From contig DDUM01000054.1 in NCBI GenBank assembly GCA_002344795.1, forward strand, positions 66,062 through 130,061: a stretch of DNA of 64,000 nucleotides. Reading direction: 5' to 3'. The stretch is from Flammeovirgaceae bacterium UBA2338 (lineage in GTDB: Bacteria; Bacteroidota; Bacteroidia; Cytophagales; Cyclobacteriaceae). A model generated the notes under the pieces. The model saw only the letters and a program-made list of their open reading frames with translations, was not told the origin of the DNA and made no database searches. Below are positions 11,808 through 19,589 of the stretch, piece after piece. How positions within the stretch are numbered: position 1 is the stretch's first letter; the number at the start of each line of letters is the position of its first letter. A program made the translations under genes and the position numbers.

Positions 11808-13484
11808 ATGACTTTTAAATCTGACCTCGAAATAGCTCAGGCTTCACAACTAAAGCCAATTGTTGAAATCGCTAAAAAACTCGGCATCAAGGAAGAGTAC
11901 CTTGAACTCTATGGCAAGTATAAAGCTAAGTTACCTCTGGCTTTGACTGACGAAAAGAAAATCTCAAAGGCGAAGTTGGTGTTGGTAACTGCGATGACGC
12001 CTACACCAGCAGGTGAAGGGAAGACTACCACCTCTATCGGTTTGTGTGAAGGTCTGAATAAGCTCGGCAAAAAAACTACTGTTGTGATACGAGAGCCTTC
12101 ACTGGGGCCTGTATTTGGAATGAAAGGTGGGGCGGCTGGCGGAGGATATTCCCAGGTGGTTCCTATGGAAGACATCAACCTCCATTTTACAGGTGACTTT
12201 GCGGCCATTGAGAAGGCAAATAATCTTTTGGCGGCCCTTATTGATAATGATATTCAAAAGCCAGATGGAGGAATGGGGATAGATCCCCGCACCGTGGAGT
12301 GGAAAAGAGTAATGGATATGAATGACAGGGCCCTTAGAAATATTGTAACTGGGTTGGGAGGAAAGAGTGGGGGAATGATCAGAGAAACCGGATTTAACAT
12401 TACGGCTGCTTCCGAAATTATGGCCATACTATGTCTGGCTAAAAATCTAAATGATTTAAAAGAAAAAATAGGAAACATCTATATCGGAGATACTTATGAA
12501 AAGAAAGCCGTGTTTGCGAAAGACATCAAGGCGCAAGGGGCTGTCGCTTTACTTTTGAAGGAAGCCATAAAGCCGAATCTTGTCCAGACGCTGGAAGGAA
12601 ATCCTGCCATTATTCATGGAGGACCTTTTGCCAACATAGCGCAAGGTGCCAACTCTATTATTGCAACCAGAATGGGAATGAGCCTTTCTGATTTTGTGGT
12701 AACCGAAGCTGGTTTTGGATCGGATTTAGGGGCTGAAAAATTTATTGATATTGTATCGGGTTATGGAGGGTTTTCTCCGCATGCGGTCGTATTGGTTGCC
12801 ACCATTAGGGCACTGAAGTATCATGGTGGTGTGGAACGAGAAAAGTTGACTGAATCTAATCTGGAGGCAGTGAAAGCAGGTTTTGCCAATCTGGAAAAGC
12901 ACATTGAAAACACAAAGATTTTTGGCTTGCCTGCAGTTATATCATTGAATAAATTTATTACCGACTCAGAGGAGGAGATCAACTGGGTGATGGAGAAATG
13001 TAAAACGTTAGGTGTGCAAATTGCGCTGGCAGAAGGATGGGAGAAGGGGGGAGAAGGAATGATGGAATTGGCGGAGAAGGTTGCGCATGCTGCAGAAGTA
13101 TTTGATGGCAAATGTTGGCCAGTTTACCACTGGCAGGATAGTATACAGGAAAAAATAGAGGCGGTGGCTATTAAAATTTATGGAGCTAAAAATGTTGAAT
13201 TTCTGCCAAAAGCCAGACAGAACCTGAATAAAATTGAAAGACTGGGACTAAGTGATAAACCGGTTTGCATTGCAAAAACCCAAAACTCCTTCTCTGATGA
13301 CGCAAAGAAAAGGGGCAGGCCAAAAGATTTTACCATAACTGTGCGTGAGATAGAGATTGCAGCGGGTGCAGGATTTGTTATCCCAATAACGGGTGATATG
13401 CTGAGAATGCCGGGGCTTCCCTATGTGCCAGCCTCCATGGGTATGGATATTGATAACGATGGCAAAATTTCAGGGCTCTCCTGA
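11808..13484 (+). CDS. fhs: Formate--tetrahydrofolate ligase
   Basis: TPAGEGKTT, REPSLGPVFG, GGAAGGGY, HGGPFANIA, TEAGFG, AKTQ, MPGLP. Confidence 0.97.
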   Translation: MTFKSDLEIAQASQLKPIVEIAKKLGIKEEYLELYGKYKAKLPLALTDEKKISKAKLVLVTAMTPTPAGEGKTTTSIGLCEGLNKLGKKTTVVIREPSLGPVFGMKGGAAGGGYSQVVPMEDINLHFTGDFAAIEKANNLLAALIDNDIQKPDGGMGIDPRTVEWKRVMDMNDRALRNIVTGLGGKSGGMIRETGFNITAASEIMAILCLAKNLNDLKEKIGNIYIGDTYEKKAVFAKDIKAQGAVALLLKEAIKPNLVQTLEGNPAIIHGGPFANIAQGANSIIATRMGMSLSDFVVTEAGFGSDLGAEKFIDIVSGYGGFSPHAVVLVATIRALKYHGGVEREKLTESNLEAVKAGFANLEKHIENTKIFGLPAVISLNKFITDSEEEINWVMEKCKTLGVQIALAEGWEKGGEGMMELAEKVAHAAEVFDGKCWPVYHWQDSIQEKIEAVAIKIYGAKNVEFLPKARQNLNKIERLGLSDKPVCIAKTQNSFSDDAKKRGRPKDFTITVREIEIAAGAGFVIPITGDMLRMPGLPYVPASMGMDIDNDGKISGLS

Positions 13485-13497
13485 TGTAGGATAAACT

Positions 13498-14346
13498 ATG
13501 AGCTTGTCTGTAAAACCAATTGAGATAACGAAAGTTAGTGAAGGCGGAAGCAAAGTAATACCAGACTTGATGGCGGTAGAAGAACCGCTTGAGATCAGAA
13601 TTGGTTATGGCGCTTTGGGTGAAAGACAACAGAAAAGTTTATCAGTAACCATGCGTACGCCAGGCCATGATTATGAATTGGCTATTGGGTTTCTATTTAC
13701 AGAAGGGATAATTGACGCCTATGATCAGGTAGAACTTATTAAGTATTGCGAAGATGCAGGCAGACAGGAGGAGAGAGAAAACGTAGTTAGGATTGAACTT
13801 AAGCCAGGAGTAAATTTTGATTTAAGTAAGCTACAGCGTAATTTTTATACTTCCTCCAGTTGTGGGGTATGTGGTAAGTCATCTATTGAAGCAGTTCATG
13901 TAACCTGCACACAAATTCAGGATAACATTAATATAGAAAGAAAGGTTATCCACGGATTGTCAGATAAATTAAGAGATGCCCAACAAATTTTTGAACATAC
14001 GGGTGGCCTTCATGCGGTAGGACTATTTGATTTGAGTGGTAAACTATTGCTTACCCGCGAGGATGTGGGCAGGCACAATGCCATGGATAAAATCGTAGGG
14101 GCATGTTTGTTTAAAAATGTAATTCCATTATCCAAAACCATTCTGTTAGTTAGCGGTCGTGCGAGTTTTGAATTAGTTCAAAAAGGATTACGTGCAGGGG
14201 TTCCAATCATGGCTGCAGTTGGGGCTCCTTCCAGCTTGGCAGTTACTTTAGCGAAGGATTTAGGGATGACCTTATTGGGTTTTGTCCGAGGGGGCAGTTT
14301 TAATATATACTGCGGAGCGCAACGGATAGACTCAAAAAGACTGTAG
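13498..14346 (+). CDS. fdhD: Formate dehydrogenase accessory sulfurtransferase
   Basis: EEPLEI, TMRTPG, SSCGVCG, TGGLHA, DVGRHNAMDK. Confidence 0.95.
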   Translation: MSLSVKPIEITKVSEGGSKVIPDLMAVEEPLEIRIGYGALGERQQKSLSVTMRTPGHDYELAIGFLFTEGIIDAYDQVELIKYCEDAGRQEERENVVRIELKPGVNFDLSKLQRNFYTSSSCGVCGKSSIEAVHVTCTQIQDNINIERKVIHGLSDKLRDAQQIFEHTGGLHAVGLFDLSGKLLLTREDVGRHNAMDKIVGACLFKNVIPLSKTILLVSGRASFELVQKGLRAGVPIMAAVGAPSSLAVTLAKDLGMTLLGFVRGGSFNIYCGAQRIDSKRL

Positions 14347-14530
14347 CAGGGTTTATAGGCACTATTTTTAAAGTTTATTTTCATCGTCCATCGTGCTCAT
14401 TAGCCTCTCACATCATTAAATGTTCTGGTAACAACAATGGTGGGCAGTTTTAATTTTCTTTGATTAAATTAGGCTTACTTAAACATTGAATGTGGAGCTG
14501 GGTATTGAGTGAAAATGAATTAAAGAAACC

Positions 14531-16183
14531 ATGTCTGATAATCTGTCAAAATTAGCCGCTCGAAAAGGCCTTGAGAATCCCCTTTTTGAAAAATTGGTTA
14601 CGATTTCTAAGGAGAAGCGAACCCCAAACCCGGAGGAAATGAGAGCCCTGGCCAAAGAATTTTTGGTGGGCAATGCCAATGTTCACGGCACTGTGAGTTT
14701 CTATGATTTTCTGAAAGCGGAAAACCAATCTAAAAAGGTATTTGTCTGCAATGGTAGCGCATGTTTGGTGGCTGGCACTCAGGATGACTTGAAAAAGAAG
14801 TTGGGTGCTCATTTTAAAGAGGAAGAAATTGGGCACATGTGCTGCCTTGGCAGGTGCCATGAAAATAGTGCCTACCATTATGAAGGGAAAAATTATTCAG
14901 GTAAGAGTGGATTAGCAATTGATGAAGTAATAAAAGGAAAGGGTGAAAACGGAGACATGTATCATGTGCAGTCCAATTTGAAAGACCCAATTCTGACCAA
15001 CCCTTATCCGGAAGAAAAATCTTTTTTTGATTTTGTTAGAACTTGCCTGACAAGAGACAGGGATGAATTGCTCACAGAAATAAAAAAATCAAATGTGCGC
15101 GGTAGAGGCGGTGCGGGTTTTCCTATGGGCCTTAAATTGGAGTCGTGTAAGAATGTGCCAGGCGATCAAAAGTTTGTCGTGTGCAATGCGGATGAAGGTG
15201 ATCCGGGAGCTTATTCTGATCGTTACTTGTTGGAAAAACAGCCTCATCTTCTGTTGTTCGGAATGTTGATGGCCGGGTACATTATCGGATCCAACAAGGG
15301 AGTGATTTATATAAGAGGAGAATACCCTGAGTCGATCACCGCAATTGATGAAGAAATTGAAAAGTGGGAGAAGAATGGACTCCTGGGGGAGAATATCAAC
15401 GGAAGTGGAGTTGATTTTAGGTTTAAAATAATTGAAGGAGCAGGAGCATATATCTGTGGTGAAGAAACTGCCTTGTTGTCGTCTATTGAGGGGCAACGCC
15501 CCGAAGTAAGAGTAAGACCACCTTATCCAACTCAAGAAGGGTTGTTCAACCTACCTACAGTGGTAAACAATGTGGAAACAAGCGCTACGCTTTATTATAT
15601 CCTGAAGCATGGGGGTGAACAATACGCATCATTGGGTACTGGAAAATCCACAGGCTCAAAGCTGGTGTGTCTCGATAGTTTCTTTAATAATCCGGGCATG
15701 TATGAAATTGAGATGGGAACACCGTTTTCGGTTGTTGTTAATGATTTTGGAAAGGGATTTAAAGAAAAAGTAAAAGCCATTCAGGTGGGAGGCCCGCTGG
15801 GAGGAATCGTTCCTGCAGAGAAGATCGATGATCTGACACTTGATTTTGAATCATTCGCCAGTAATGGATTTTTACTGGGGCATGCCGGTGTGGTGAGCAT
15901 TCCTGAAGACTTTCCAATGATTGAGTATTTGGCACATCTTTTTGAATTTACAGCAGTGGAGTCGTGTGGTAAATGCTATCCATGCAGCATTGGTTCTGTT
16001 CGTGGAATGGAATTGATTAAAAAATCACAGAAGGAAGATTTTAAAATTGATCGTCAATTAATGGATGATTTGTTAGAGACATTGGAGATAGGGTCGCTAT
16101 GTGCACTGGGTGGTGGCTTGCCACTGGGAATAAAGAATGCATTGAAGTATTTTGATAAAGAATTGAAAGCCTATTTTGCTTAA
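14531..16183 (+). CDS. NAD-linked formate dehydrogenase diaphorase subunit; NuoE-like and NuoF-like domains fused (FdsG-FdsB type)
   Basis: N-terminal CNGSAC...CLGRC [2Fe-2S]; GRGGAGFP, NADEGDPG, YICGEETAL, ESCGKCYPC...CALG. Confidence 0.88.
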   Translation: MSDNLSKLAARKGLENPLFEKLVTISKEKRTPNPEEMRALAKEFLVGNANVHGTVSFYDFLKAENQSKKVFVCNGSACLVAGTQDDLKKKLGAHFKEEEIGHMCCLGRCHENSAYHYEGKNYSGKSGLAIDEVIKGKGENGDMYHVQSNLKDPILTNPYPEEKSFFDFVRTCLTRDRDELLTEIKKSNVRGRGGAGFPMGLKLESCKNVPGDQKFVVCNADEGDPGAYSDRYLLEKQPHLLLFGMLMAGYIIGSNKGVIYIRGEYPESITAIDEEIEKWEKNGLLGENINGSGVDFRFKIIEGAGAYICGEETALLSSIEGQRPEVRVRPPYPTQEGLFNLPTVVNNVETSATLYYILKHGGEQYASLGTGKSTGSKLVCLDSFFNNPGMYEIEMGTPFSVVVNDFGKGFKEKVKAIQVGGPLGGIVPAEKIDDLTLDFESFASNGFLLGHAGVVSIPEDFPMIEYLAHLFEFTAVESCGKCYPCSIGSVRGMELIKKSQKEDFKIDRQLMDDLLETLEIGSLCALGGGLPLGIKNALKYFDKELKAYFA

Positions 16184-16204
16184 ATGGGGTAAACAAAGAA
16201 GGTT

Positions 16205-18973
16205 ATGAGTGAACAAAAAAACATTGCATATATCAACAATCAACCTTTTGAATTTGAAAAGGGTGAAATGATCTTAAAGTTCGTGAGAAGGGTAGAGGAG
16301 TCCATCAACGTACCTACACTATGTGATGCGCCCAATCTTAAGCCATTTGGTACGTGCCGGGTTTGTAGTGTAGACGTAGCCCTTGAAAAAAATGGCAAAG
16401 CAAAAACGATGGCTTCCTGTCACACTCCCGTAATGGCAAATTCTTACATCTACACGGATAGTGAAAGAATTACCCGGCTGAGAAGGAATATTCTTGAACT
16501 GGTGCTTACTGACTACCCTTTGGATCGCTTGTATGAGAATAAGTCAGGGAAAAATGAGTTGCAAAGTGTAGCTAATCAGTTGCGCATCACACCAGATGAT
16601 ATTCGGTACCCTTTGGGAAAAAATCATTTGGACAAAAAACCTGACAACTCACATGCCTATATGCGTGCGGATTTGTCCACTTGCATTAATTGCTATCGGT
16701 GCATAAGGGCTTGTGATGAGGTACAAGGTGAGATGGTATTAACAATGTCAGGACGTGGGTTTGATAACACCGTCACCATGGGTATGAATGAAGGATTCAA
16801 GGACTCTGATTGTGTGAGTTGTGGTGCCTGTGCTCAGGCATGCCCAACTTCTGCGATCACGGATATATTTAACTCTAAACAGACCGTACCGGATAAAGTA
16901 ACCCGAACTGTTTGTACTTACTGTGGAGTGGGTTGCAACCTGGATGTAGCTACTGTAAAGGGAGAAATAAAATCCATTCTTGCTCCCTATGATGCAGAGG
17001 TAAATCAAGGGCACACTTGTTTAAAAGGACGATATGCCTTTCAGTTTTATAATCACGAAGATCGCTTGCGGAGCCCATTGATTAAACGCAACGGAGAATT
17101 TGAAAAGGCAACCTGGGATGAAGCTTACGATTTTATTGTAAACAAATTTACTGAAATTAAATCCAGCAATGGTTCTGATGCTATTGCCGGTATTTCCTGT
17201 GCCAGAGCAACCAACGAGGAAAATTATCTCATGCAGAAATTTATTCGTGCGGTGGTAGGAACCAACAACATTGATGGGTGCGCTCGTGTGTGCCACTCAC
17301 CTACTGCTTTGGGTATGCAACGCACTTTTGGAACCGGTGCGGCCACCAACTCCATTAAGGACATAGCATTCACTGATTGTATCATGGTGATTGGAGCAAA
17401 TCCCACCGATGCTCACCCAGTCACTGGCGCCAAGATCAAACAAAAGGCCATGAAGGGTACTCCTCTGATTGTTATTGATCCACGCAAAATTGAATTAGCG
17501 CGTTTTGCTACTTACCATCTACAACTTCGACCAGGAACCAATGTGGCTTTGCTCAATATGATGATGCATTATATTGTGAAAGAAGGTTTGGTGGATAAGG
17601 ATTTCATTCAAAAAAGAACGGAAGGATTCGAAGTATTTAAAGAAAGTATCCTGAAGCTGAATATGGATGAATTGGAATCCATTACCGGTGTAGATAAGAA
17701 TTTGGTAAGAGAAGCTGCAATGGCTTATGCCAAAGCAAAGAATGCCATGTCATTCCACGGGTTGGGAGTGACTGAACATTTCCAGGGAACCTTTACCGTT
17801 ACACTCATAGCAGACCTTGCAATGATCACCGGAAACATAGGTAGGCCGGGTGTTGGTGTCAATCCTTTGCGTGGGCAAAACAATGTGCAGGGCATGGCAG
17901 ACATGGGTGTGCAGCCCCATCAGGGTGCAGGATACCTGGCAGTGGACGATCCTAAGAATCATAGTTTATTCCAGGATTTTTACGGTGTGGATTTGCCTTT
18001 GCACGAAGGTTATAAAATTCCGGAAATGTTTGATGCGGCCATTGAGGGCAAGCTGAAAGGGCTGTGGATTATCGGGGAGGATGTAGTGCAAACAGATCCG
18101 AATACCAATCATGTGAAGAAGGCACTTTCCAATCTGGATATTCTCATAGTAAGTGAACTCTTTATGACGGAGACAGCTAAGATGGCCGATGTAATACTTC
18201 CTGCAGCCTCATTTCTGGAGAAAAGCGGAACATTTACCAATGGAGAAAGAAGAATCCAAAGAGTAAATGCGGTGGTAGATCCATTACCAGGTACTAGAGT
18301 GGATGGTCAAATTATCGTTGATATCATGAATAGGATGGGTTATAAACAACCTGACTATCATCCACGAACCGCATTGGAAGAAATTTCACAAATCGTTCCT
18401 TTCTTTAAAGGAGTTAAATGGGATGAACTGGGTGACAATGGAAAACAATGGCCTGTGCTGGAAGATGGAAAGGGAACAGAGATTATGCATAAGGATGTGT
18501 TTAAGATTGGAAAGGGTCAAATTATATTCCACCATTTTGAAGAATCCTCTGAAATTTTAGAGAACAGTGAATCGTTTCCATTTATTCTTACCACCAATCG
18601 TGAATTGGAACACTACAACTGTGGCGCGATGACACGTAGAACACCCAATGTGGAGATTCTTACGGAAGATATGTTGCTCATCAATAAACATGATGCTGAA
18701 GATAAGGGAATAAAAGATGGTGATATTGTATGCGTGAGCTCTGCAAGAGGTAAGGTGGATTTGAAAGCAAAAGTGACGAACGAAGTGAAACCAGGTGTAC
18801 TTAGCACTACGTTTCACTTTCCGGAGGTACTAGTAAATATTCTCACGTCTGGTGTATCTGATTCTGAAGCCATGTGTCCCGAGTACAAGGTGGTGGCTGT
18901 AGATGTACGAAAAGCCCGCAAAGCAGGAATGAGAAAATTGGGTGAAGTTGAAGAGCGCAAAGTGCATGTTTGA
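16205..18973 (+). CDS. fdhF: Molybdopterin formate dehydrogenase alpha subunit (FdsA/FdhF type, Cys ligand)
   Basis: [2Fe-2S] C..CRVC..C; CINCYRCIRAC and CVSCGACAQAC; CTYCGVGC..C; CLKG; active-site RVCH; PLRGQNNVQG. Confidence 0.92.
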   Translation: MSEQKNIAYINNQPFEFEKGEMILKFVRRVEESINVPTLCDAPNLKPFGTCRVCSVDVALEKNGKAKTMASCHTPVMANSYIYTDSERITRLRRNILELVLTDYPLDRLYENKSGKNELQSVANQLRITPDDIRYPLGKNHLDKKPDNSHAYMRADLSTCINCYRCIRACDEVQGEMVLTMSGRGFDNTVTMGMNEGFKDSDCVSCGACAQACPTSAITDIFNSKQTVPDKVTRTVCTYCGVGCNLDVATVKGEIKSILAPYDAEVNQGHTCLKGRYAFQFYNHEDRLRSPLIKRNGEFEKATWDEAYDFIVNKFTEIKSSNGSDAIAGISCARATNEENYLMQKFIRAVVGTNNIDGCARVCHSPTALGMQRTFGTGAATNSIKDIAFTDCIMVIGANPTDAHPVTGAKIKQKAMKGTPLIVIDPRKIELARFATYHLQLRPGTNVALLNMMMHYIVKEGLVDKDFIQKRTEGFEVFKESILKLNMDELESITGVDKNLVREAAMAYAKAKNAMSFHGLGVTEHFQGTFTVTLIADLAMITGNIGRPGVGVNPLRGQNNVQGMADMGVQPHQGAGYLAVDDPKNHSLFQDFYGVDLPLHEGYKIPEMFDAAIEGKLKGLWIIGEDVVQTDPNTNHVKKALSNLDILIVSELFMTETAKMADVILPAASFLEKSGTFTNGERRIQRVNAVVDPLPGTRVDGQIIVDIMNRMGYKQPDYHPRTALEEISQIVPFFKGVKWDELGDNGKQWPVLEDGKGTEIMHKDVFKIGKGQIIFHHFEESSEILENSESFPFILTTNRELEHYNCGAMTRRTPNVEILTEDMLLINKHDAEDKGIKDGDIVCVSSARGKVDLKAKVTNEVKPGVLSTTFHFPEVLVNILTSGVSDSEAMCPEYKVVAVDVRKARKAGMRKLGEVEERKVHV

Positions 18974-19068: not shown

Positions 19069-19302
19069 ATGAGTGCAATTGAATTGAAAAAGAACCTTCA
19101 TAAAATTGTTGATCGCATTGAGGATGAAAGGTTGCTTAGAACTATATGCAGCTTTCTGGAAGTAAGAGAGAAGTCGACTGATGGACAGATGTGGGATTCC
19201 CTGACTGAAAGTCAGAAAAGGGAAGTTCTTGAGGCATATGCAGAATCAGAAAATGATTCAAACCTAATTGAAGACAAGGATGTTTGGGAAGGCCTAAAAT
19301 GA
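19069..19302 (+). CDS. Putative antitoxin (addiction-module-like)
   Basis: 77 aa, acidic C-terminus LTESQKREVLEAYAESE; ATGA overlap with the RelE/ParE gene. Confidence 0.7.
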   Translation: MSAIELKKNLHKIVDRIEDERLLRTICSFLEVREKSTDGQMWDSLTESQKREVLEAYAESENDSNLIEDKDVWEGLK

Positions 19303-19589
19303 AACTAGTCTGGACTGAGAAAGCCAAAGCAAGAATGGCCGAAATCTTAGATCACATTGAACTAGAATTCGGTATCGCCTCCCGACAATCATTTAGAGAA
19401 AAGGCAAAAGACTTTACCAGGTTGCTAATCGAGTTTCCCGAAATTGGAACCTTGGAAATCAAAGACAAGAATTTGAGGGGTTTTCAACTGACTAAGCAAA
19501 CAAGAATATTTTATCGTATAAAGAAAGATCAAATCGTTATTTTAACTTTTTTCGATTCAAGGCAAGACCCAAAGAAAAGGCCATTGTAG
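19299..19589 (+). CDS. RelE/ParE family toxin
   Basis: MKLVWTEKAK...LIEFPEIG...LRGF...RIFYRI...ILTFFDSRQDP; start ATG 19299. Confidence 0.85.
   Translation: MKLVWTEKAKARMAEILDHIELEFGIASRQSFREKAKDFTRLLIEFPEIGTLEIKDKNLRGFQLTKQTRIFYRIKKDQIVILTFFDSRQDPKKRPL

Follow-up and report, generated by a model that had tools for sequence, protein, structure and literature searches.

The formate dehydrogenase alpha subunit (FdsA) encoded in the window (the whole stretch of 64,000 nucleotides that was analysed) is, judged by its sequence, without a binding site for the off-path cluster A4. The gene itself reads as that of an intact formate dehydrogenase (FDH) under purifying selection, in which the loss of ligands is not decay. 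The loss of A4 is real but fairly ordinary: it is clade-wide, recurs in many lineages and is known from a solved enzyme. The product is very probably a working alpha-beta NAD+-dependent Mo-FDH whose dead-end cluster was shed by the ancestor of a mostly Cytophagales clade. The features of the locus are listed in Table 1.

Table 1. Features of the formate dehydrogenase locus (positions refer to the window)
Feature	Positions	Strand	Evidence
fhs, formate-tetrahydrofolate ligase, directly upstream, same orientation	11808..13484	+	Pfam FTHFS, E=8e-252
fdhD, sulfurtransferase for FDH Mo cofactor maturation	13498..14346	+	NF001943, 311 bits (cut-off 269); Pfam FdhD-NarQ
fdsGB, fused diaphorase subunit, 550 aa	14531..16183	+	Pfam; PDB matches to FdsB, HydB, Nqo1
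fdsA, formate dehydrogenase alpha subunit, 922 aa	16205..18973	+	TIGR01591; Pfam; PDB match 6TG9_A
[2Fe-2S] site, A5 equivalent, main path: C40, C51, C54, C72	16322..16420	+	Pfam Fer2_4
Remnant of the His/3Cys [4Fe-4S] (A4 / N5-type) site, Y104-PLD-R108-LY-E111-NKSGK-N117	16514..16555	+	Alignment to R. capsulatus FdsA
Two ferredoxin-type [4Fe-4S] sites, A2/A3 equivalents: C160/163/166/170 and C203/206/209/213	16682..16843	+	Pfam Fer4_7, Fer4_Nqo3
Mo-proximal [4Fe-4S] site, A1 (N7 equivalent): C237, C240, C244, C272	16913..17020	+	Pfam Molybdop_Fe4S4, residues 231-284
Catalytic Cys363 (Mo ligand) and His364, block ARVCHSPT	17291..17296	+	Aligned to R. capsulatus FdsA CARVCHSPT (Cys386)
Catalytic Arg556, block NPLRGQNNVQG	17870..17872	+	Block identical in R. 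capsulatus FdsA

FdsA is a Cys-type Mo/W-bisPGD enzyme with a NuoG-like N-terminal Fe-S domain. It scored 834.1 bits against the Fdh-alpha model TIGR01591 (cut-off 666.25), covering the full 672-position profile, and stayed below the cut-off of the NuoG model TIGR01973 (307 bits vs. 470); the Pfam domains found were Fer2_4, Fer4, Fer4_7, Fer4_Nqo3, Molybdop_Fe4S4, Molybdopterin and Molydop_binding. All 16 remaining Fe-S cysteines are present, as the initial annotation had stated for the other cluster motifs, and were 100% conserved in 80 relatives from both the cluster-less and the cluster-bearing clade, and Cys363, His364 and Arg556 were invariant across the alignment of FdsA relatives.

Regarding the A4 site, the initial annotation had reported that all four His/3Cys ligands are gone at 16514-16555 and that the spacing and the ELQ anchor are retained. 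Both statements were borne out by a phmmer comparison with FdsA of Rhodobacter capsulatus (6TG9/6TGA, E=1e-235), in which DYPLDRLYENKSGKNELQ of the query landed gap-free on DHPLDCLTCAANGDCELQ; H117, C121, C124 and C130 are replaced by Y104, R108, E111 and N117, respectively, with codon 104 (TAC) beginning at 16514 and codon 117 (AAT) finishing at 16555. The domain PF10588 (NADH-G_4Fe-4S_3), carried by the homologues that keep the motif, was absent from FdsA in the Pfam search. The four residues of the R. capsulatus protein are the ligands of cluster A4 (Radon et al. 2020, PMC7171172), which is located at the contact between the two FdsA subunits, away from the Mo-to-FMN chain (PMC7171172), in agreement with the earlier assignment of the site as A4 of FdsA and N5 of NuoG, off the main path near the dimer interface. 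A motif shifted to another position was excluded, since FdsA is devoid of Cys between C72 and C160 and the cluster-less clade gains no conserved Cys anywhere. An AlphaFold2 model of FdsA (built on a 55-sequence alignment) had a mean pLDDT of 76.6, with values of 45-57 over residues 100-230, the sites of intact clusters included; given this low pLDDT of the Fe-S domain, the model is silent on loop packing.

Among the 80 closest species genomes, 30 share the pattern Y-[R/K/Q]-x-N and 49 keep H-C-C-C, with no intermediate; the 120 nearest homologues have lost the motif in about 70% of cases. A sequencing or assembly artefact was excluded, the state being found independently in the genomes of 30 species and also in about 80 homologues from metagenomes. 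When the loss was mapped on a phylogeny, the cluster-less sequences grouped, with good support, into a single clade composed mainly of Cytophagales (SH-like support 88 in FastTree, SH-aLRT 99 in IQ-TREE). Roseivirga echinicomitans KMM 6058, a cultured organism, carries the Y-type gene as well. A Bacteroidales cluster (P0124), also cluster-less, sits outside the group formed by Cytophagales and the sequences with the motif kept; a topology joining the two cluster-less Bacteroidota groups was not rejected by the AU test (p=0.34), and one loss and two losses both fit. Y104 and N117 were invariant among 31 cluster-less relatives, as were P105, E118 and L119, with free variation at positions 106-116, K, R or Q occupying position 108. 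The replacement of T154 by R co-varies with the loss (94% of the cluster-less vs. 2% of the cluster-bearing sequences). A literature search found no paper on FdsA-type enzymes of Bacteroidota.

The His/3Cys cluster is not universal in the FdsA-type family. A comparison of 103 representatives at 50% identity gave, for those with intact catalytic residues, 21 of 36 without the motif and 15 of 36 keeping it, and, for the catalytically dead ones, 64 keeping it and three having lost it (odds ratio 30, uncorrected for phylogeny). The losses converge on identical replacements (His by Tyr, the last Cys by Asn). It is conceivable, if rather less than an even bet, that the cluster is systematically expendable in true FDHs and retained in catalytically dead 'wire' relatives. 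If this were true, A4 would have no catalytic role and its functions would be limited to dimer coupling, oxygen repair or docking, and the cluster-less Cytophagales clade together with its 70%-identical cluster-bearing sisters would be a natural pair for probing the cluster's job.

The gene fdsGB lies 21 bp upstream of fdsA. The first part of its product is a NuoE-like [2Fe-2S] domain (C73, C78, C105, C109; Pfam 2Fe-2S_thioredx 19-134) and the second a NuoF-like FMN/NAD domain (Complex1_51K 184-355) with a [4Fe-4S] site (C479, C482, C485, C524; NADH_4Fe-4S 466-547); all of these cofactor ligands are conserved in the cluster-less and the cluster-bearing clades. A tie between cluster loss and the fused FdsG/B subunit was excluded because the cluster-bearing sisters share the fusion, and likewise a tie to fhs, which is linked to the FDH operon in related loci of both kinds (17 cluster-less, 11 cluster-bearing). 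No extra gene conserved alongside cluster-less operons was found in the neighbourhood comparison. The host genome contains a separate nuoF-nuoG pair on contig C22. Its NuoG still has the N5 motif (HPHDCPVCDEGGSC), and the loss is therefore confined to the FDH; this NuoG was the sole other match in a search of the host genome for a second, cluster-bearing FdsA, and no such FdsA was found.

The enzyme would be cytoplasmic and composed of the alpha subunit FdsA, as the catalytic subunit, and the fused gamma/beta subunit FdsGB; electrons would reach the [4Fe-4S] cluster and FMN of FdsGB and then NAD+. Cluster A4 would be a side branch unneeded by this electron chain, dropped in the ancestor of the mostly Cytophagales clade, after which the loop would have been re-fixed around the invariant Tyr and Asn. 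The enzyme is expected to be active and to carry no replacement cofactor, and by analogy with FDH1 of Methylorubrum extorquens (MeFDH1) its quaternary form is probably a simple alpha-beta protomer. The initial description of an FDH lacking inter-protomer wiring holds trivially, because the cluster is gone.

Several other readings of the lost ligands were weighed. That the gene is decaying or its product inactive, the loss being the first sign of pseudogenisation, is highly improbable. Four cofactor ligands are gone and the operon is patchy, the Y-type DNA pattern being present in only four of 401 phylum genomes and missing from three genomes of the same genus; however, the reading frame is intact, the dN/dS of the whole gene relative to the nearest relative (L001) is 0.026 (dS 0.64) and that of the N-terminal domain 0.017, the other ligands and the catalytic triad are invariant in the 31 cluster-less sequences, down to 69% identity, and neither fdhD nor the diaphorase gene is damaged. 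The selection and conservation data thus all but refute decay, which had been named at the outset as one outcome that would speak against a functional loss. It is also quite unlikely, if slightly less so, that the remodelled loop binds another metal, a cluster not ligated by Cys, or a new protein partner standing in for the second protomer. The invariant Y104, P105, N117, E118 and L119 and the co-varying R154 do amount to a new constraint and not to free drift, but Tyr, Arg/Lys/Gln, a variable residue and Asn form an implausible set of Fe-S ligands, the positions between the invariant residues vary freely, cluster-less operons bring no conserved added gene, and the invariant Asn precedes a helix predicted with low confidence at residues 118-125, where it may fit a plain helix N-cap.

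Somewhat more weight, although still well short of a probable explanation, falls to an FdsA-FdsA dimer that persists by protein contacts alone and holds two electrically insulated catalytic units. The subclade of the query (YPLDRLYE) keeps L106 and L109, the counterparts of L119 and L122, the leucines that intercalate at the interface in R. capsulatus FdsA, so that a dimer without electronic coupling would be possible, and the cluster-bearing Bacteroidota sisters keep HPLDCLTC. Against this, most members of the cluster-less clade have replaced these leucines (e.g., YPKEKFET), among the 50%-identity representatives the leucine pair and the FdsD-binding Trp are both kept only in the Rhodobacter/Cupriavidus type, and the only solved cluster-less enzyme, MeFDH1, is a single alpha-beta unit (PMC10869683). 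The favoured reading of an alpha-beta enzyme that has shed A4 makes the cluster-less state a stable, selected and recurrent natural outcome, and the missing PF10588 in such FdsA proteins should not be taken as a defect during annotation.

The N5 cluster of NuoG/Nqo3 occupies a homologous H-x3-C-x2-C-x5-C site in an equivalent N-terminal fold, the ligands of which are lost in the query FdsA. In complex I, N5 is part of the main chain (N4 -> N5 -> N6a) and cannot be lost; the same site lies on the main path in complex I and on a side branch in FDH.

The closest solved homologue is the FdsABG(D) enzyme of R. capsulatus and Cupriavidus necator (6TGA, 6TG9, 9WXB; aligned residues 30-903, E=1e-235), the 50%-identity representative of which (P0125) is 47% identical to the query FdsA. 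The catalytic Cys-His-Arg and the main chain A1-A2-A3-A5-B-FMN are shared, whereas the R. capsulatus/C. necator type keeps A4 (H117/C121/C124/C130), has separate FdsG and FdsB subunits, and forms a dimer of heterotetramers with FdsD bound via Trp917, a position occupied by Ser887 in the query. A search for FdsD (PF11390) had no match in the host genome; as the control genomes gave none as well, this only hints at the absence of the gene. In the R. capsulatus enzyme, electron transfer takes place within, not between, tetramers (2026 review, PMC13397495).

FDH1 of M. extorquens AM1 (PDB 7VW6/7E5Z/7XQW) has been published as an enzyme without the dimer-interface cluster; it is an active two-subunit alpha-beta enzyme of solved structure that is heavily used for CO2 reduction (PMC10869683, PMC13397495). 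The query resembles it in the two-subunit architecture and NAD+ dependence (here predicted from the genes), in an alpha subunit with sites for three [4Fe-4S] and one [2Fe-2S] cluster and the His/3Cys cluster missing, and in a beta subunit that joins an FdsG-like [2Fe-2S] module to an FdsB-like FMN/[4Fe-4S] module; MeFDH1 has no FdsD, and the query FdsA likewise is without the FdsD-binding Trp. Unlike the query, MeFDH1 is a tungsten enzyme with an N-terminal extension of roughly 65 residues, and DQPERATSHDPSSHFW, what is left of its loop, bears no relation to YPLDRLYENKSGKNEL of the query. The query FdsA scored 567 bits against the alpha subunit of MeFDH1 (7VW6_A), 788 bits against R. capsulatus FdsA and about 1500 bits against cluster-bearing Bacteroidota proteins; being nearer to cluster-bearing homologues than to MeFDH1, it represents an independent loss in a separate lineage. 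The earlier view of the protein as a special natural minimal FDH could not be upheld, as MeFDH1 is already known with an equal build and the loss is common in the family; since MeFDH1 already fills that role, no new kind of enzyme is revealed.

The cluster-bearing sisters are FdsA proteins of Chitinophagales, Flavobacteriales and some Cytophagales (e.g., Splendidivirga corallicola BMA10, Reichenbachiella). They resemble the query in sequence (68-72% identical), in the fdsGB-fdsA operon with a fused beta subunit and in the missing FdsD-binding Trp, and differ from it in keeping DHPLDCLTCEVN[GN]NCELQ and in scoring for PF10588. Metal-dependent NAD-linked FDHs are intensively studied for CO2 reduction, and here a large uncharacterised clade, mostly Cytophagales, has its nearest cluster-bearing sisters at about 70% identity. 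With a shared operon, a fused beta subunit and presumably FdsD in neither, the two form a matched pair that is cleaner than R. capsulatus vs. M. extorquens and is suited to asking whether oligomerisation, oxygen tolerance, catalytic bias or stability depends on A4.

The 922-aa product of fdsA (P0001) matched TIGR01591 (formate dehydrogenase subunit alpha) with 834 bits (cut-off 666) and contains the Pfam domains Fer2_4, ferredoxin-type Fer4, Molybdop_Fe4S4, Molybdopterin and Molydop_binding. The closest solved structure was FdsA of Rhodobacter capsulatus (RcFdsA; 6TG9/6TGA, E=1e-235, query residues 30-903). The ligands of A4, the His/3Cys [4Fe-4S] cluster of RcFdsA homologous to N5 of NuoG, are His117, Cys121, Cys124 and Cys130 (Radon et al. 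2020, PMC7171172), and the phmmer alignment was gap-free at this site (DYPLDRLYENKSGKNELQ over DHPLDCLTCAANGDCELQ). Y104, R108, E111 and N117 therefore stand at the positions of the A4 ligands, all four of which are replaced with the spacing preserved, in agreement with the initial annotation. Also borne out were its statements that the remaining cluster motifs are intact (the other 16 Fe-S cysteines, C363-H364 and R556 were all present) and that the lost cluster lies off the Mo-to-FMN path: in R. capsulatus FDH (RcFDH) the chain from bis-MGD to FMN consists of A1, A2, A3, A5 and B6, both A4 and G7 are outside it, and A4 is located at the FdsA-FdsA dimer interface between Leu119 and Leu122 (PMC7171172). 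A shifted motif was ruled out, as the stretch of P0001 from C72 to C160 is free of further Cys; PF10588, present in cluster-bearing homologues, was not found by Pfam. The FDH alone is affected, since NuoG of the same genome retains the homologous N5 motif (NHPHDCPVCDEGGSCHLQ). This long NuoG (at least 892 aa), encoded in a complex I nuoF-nuoG pair (contig C22, locus L082), is the only further NuoG-fold protein in the genome.

Coordinates of the A4 site, the FDH gene cluster and the adjacent genes (window positions)
Feature	Position	Strand	Description
fhs	11808-13484	+	FTHFS, E=8e-252; 5' of fdsA
fdhD	13498-14346	+	NF001943, 311 bits; 5' of fdsA
fdsGB	14531-16183	+	550 aa; NuoE-like [2Fe-2S] domain fused to NuoF-like FMN/NAD/[4Fe-4S] module
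fdsA	16205-18973	+	ORF, 922-aa product P0001
A4 site	16514-16555		codon 104 (TAC) to codon 117 (AAT) of fdsA
fhs-fdhD-fdsGB-fdsA	11808-18973	+	single co-oriented cluster
77-aa ORF and toxin gene	19069-19589	+	directly 3' of fdsA; 101-aa ParE-family toxin (PF05016, E=1.6e-11)

Linkage to fhs was also seen in related loci, 17 cluster-less (FdsA without the A4 ligands) and 11 cluster-bearing, suggesting that formate oxidation is coupled to the folate C1 pool in a conserved manner in Bacteroidota. The 77-aa ORF, without a match in the Pfam scan, overlaps the toxin gene by 19 bp, and the two look like a type II toxin-antitoxin pair. They hold the position occupied by fdsC/fdsD in proteobacterial operons; FdsD was not among the genes 3' of fdsA, and a search of the genome for FdsD gave no match, though it gave none in the control genomes either. 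The Y-type DNA pattern was absent from the three genomes of the same genus (G171, G311, G379) and occurred in 4 of 401 from the phylum; the FDH operon thus appears accessory and patchily distributed.

Among the best 120 matches examined from a 5.8-billion-protein collection, about 70% read TDYP-x2-[RKQ]-x2-x-x5-NEL and the rest, at about 70% identity, TDHPLDCLTCEVN[GN]NCELQ. In the 80 nearest species-representative genomes, H-C-C-C was found in 49 and Y-[R/K/Q]-x-N in 30 (locus L052, likewise Y-type, was missed by the search pattern and is outside the 30), with no intermediate ligand states. fdsGB was fused in all 67 loci having a complete upstream flank, which makes the fusion independent of cluster loss. 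The cluster-less sequences formed one clade (SH-like support 88 in FastTree; SH-aLRT 99 in IQ-TREE, mixture model), placed among unresolved cluster-bearing Bacteroidota lineages, with members from Cyclobacteriaceae, Roseivirgaceae, Flammeovirgaceae, Fulvivirgaceae and Vicingaceae. Also cluster-less is P0124 (59% identity, EYPPDKLKPYPGMLPTEF), a Bacteroidales cluster that branches outside the whole group; joining it to the Cytophagales cluster-less clade was not rejected by the AU test (p=0.34), hence there were one or two losses within the phylum. Three MAGs from other phyla, two of Acidobacteriota and one of Fibrobacterota, are nested within the clade and point to transfer or mis-binning. Regarding other-phylum FdsA deep within Bacteroidota clades generally (L034 and L050, Acidobacteriota; L010, Fibrobacterota; L053 and L057, Pseudomonadota; all MAGs), where Aridibacter and Pyrinomonadaceae fdsA genes stand among Roseivirga and Cyclobacteriaceae sequences, the placement reflects either a horizontally transferred operon or contigs assigned to the wrong bin.

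Decay of the gene is excluded by a dN/dS of 0.026 for the whole gene against L001 (closest species genome, 97% identity, dS 0.64; N-terminal domain 0.017, codons 96-125 0.015), by 100% conservation of the Mo ligand and the Fe-S cysteines other than those of A4 in 31 cluster-less and 49 cluster-bearing relatives, by the invariant catalytic His and Arg (55-sequence alignment) and by diaphorase ligands conserved in both groups alike. Within the cluster-less clade, Y104, P105, N117, E118 and L119 are invariant, with drift in residues 106-116; cluster loss is accompanied by a co-varying T154->R change. In FdsGB, the columns A303G, R486S (adjoining cluster ligand C485) and P533G divide the two clades completely or almost so, which may reflect co-adaptation or merely shared ancestry.

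When 1.84 billion representatives at 50% identity were scanned in full with HMMER, 103 of the top 150 matches had a NuoG-type N-terminus; [H/G]-C-C-C was kept in 79 of these and not in the other 24. Catalytic Cys-His-Arg was intact in 15 keeping versus 21 lacking the motif, and the active site was dead in 64 versus 3 (Fisher odds ratio 30, p=1.5e-9, uncorrected for phylogeny; the sample was ranked by its similarity to a query that is itself cluster-less). Catalytically intact cluster-less representatives came from Bacteroidales, Planctomycetota, Nitrospinota, Myxococcales and others, with Tyr for His and Asn for the last Cys recurring in several lineages; other representatives showed partial ligand states (HCPC, Q-CC, H..C). 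The 64 of 79 motif-keeping representatives (within P0124-P0273) that have lost Cys-His-Arg are FDH-like 'wire' proteins, commonly annotated as formate dehydrogenase.

Judged from the sequence, the Mo-to-FMN chain is complete without A4. Formate would be oxidized at Mo-bisPGD (C363, H364, R556), and electrons would pass through A1 (C237/240/244/272) and two ferredoxin-type clusters to the [2Fe-2S] cluster (C40/51/54/72), then through the FdsGB [4Fe-4S] cluster (C479/482/485/524) and FMN to NAD+. An ancestor giving up the cluster-mediated dimer contact may have been left with a surface His-ligated cluster as an iron-costing dead end, which would have been discarded before the loop was re-stabilized. 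Asn117 sits immediately before a helix (118-125) predicted by an AF2 model that is unreliable in the Fe-S domain, and tentatively fits a helix N-cap; Tyr104 is plausibly a cavity filler. L106 and L109 are retained in the subclade of P0001, not in most of the cluster-less clade. The enzyme could consist of one alpha-beta unit or form an insulated dimer.

While the observation in the initial annotation was confirmed in full, its interpretation was supported only in part, as the idea of a special 'natural minimal FDH' was not borne out: FDH1 of Methylorubrum extorquens (MeFDH1) is a natural FDH that lacks inter-protomer wiring, has a solved structure and is already in use. The homologous loop of its alpha subunit (7VW6/7E5Z) aligned as Cys-free (ADQPERATSHDPSSH--FW); Park et al. 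report the missing dimer-interface cluster as its one major difference from RcFDH and infer that this cluster is unnecessary for MeFDH1 (PMC10869683). A 2026 review gives the same cofactor count as Park et al., notes the wide use of MeFDH1 in CO2-reduction devices and places electron transfer in RcFDH inside each tetramer, not across tetramers (PMC13397495). The FdsD-binding Trp917 of R. capsulatus FdsA is Ser887 in P0001, and the Trp is absent across the Bacteroidota family; among the representatives, Trp917 and both interface leucines occur together only in the Rhodobacter/Cupriavidus type. A literature search found no characterized member of the cluster-less clade. P0001 would work in the manner of MeFDH1 but is of another lineage, as it scored 567 bits to 7VW6_A versus 788 to RcFdsA, which bears the cluster, and about 1500 to the Bacteroidota sisters that also bear it; P0001 is a further case, from an independent lineage, of an already known kind of enzyme.
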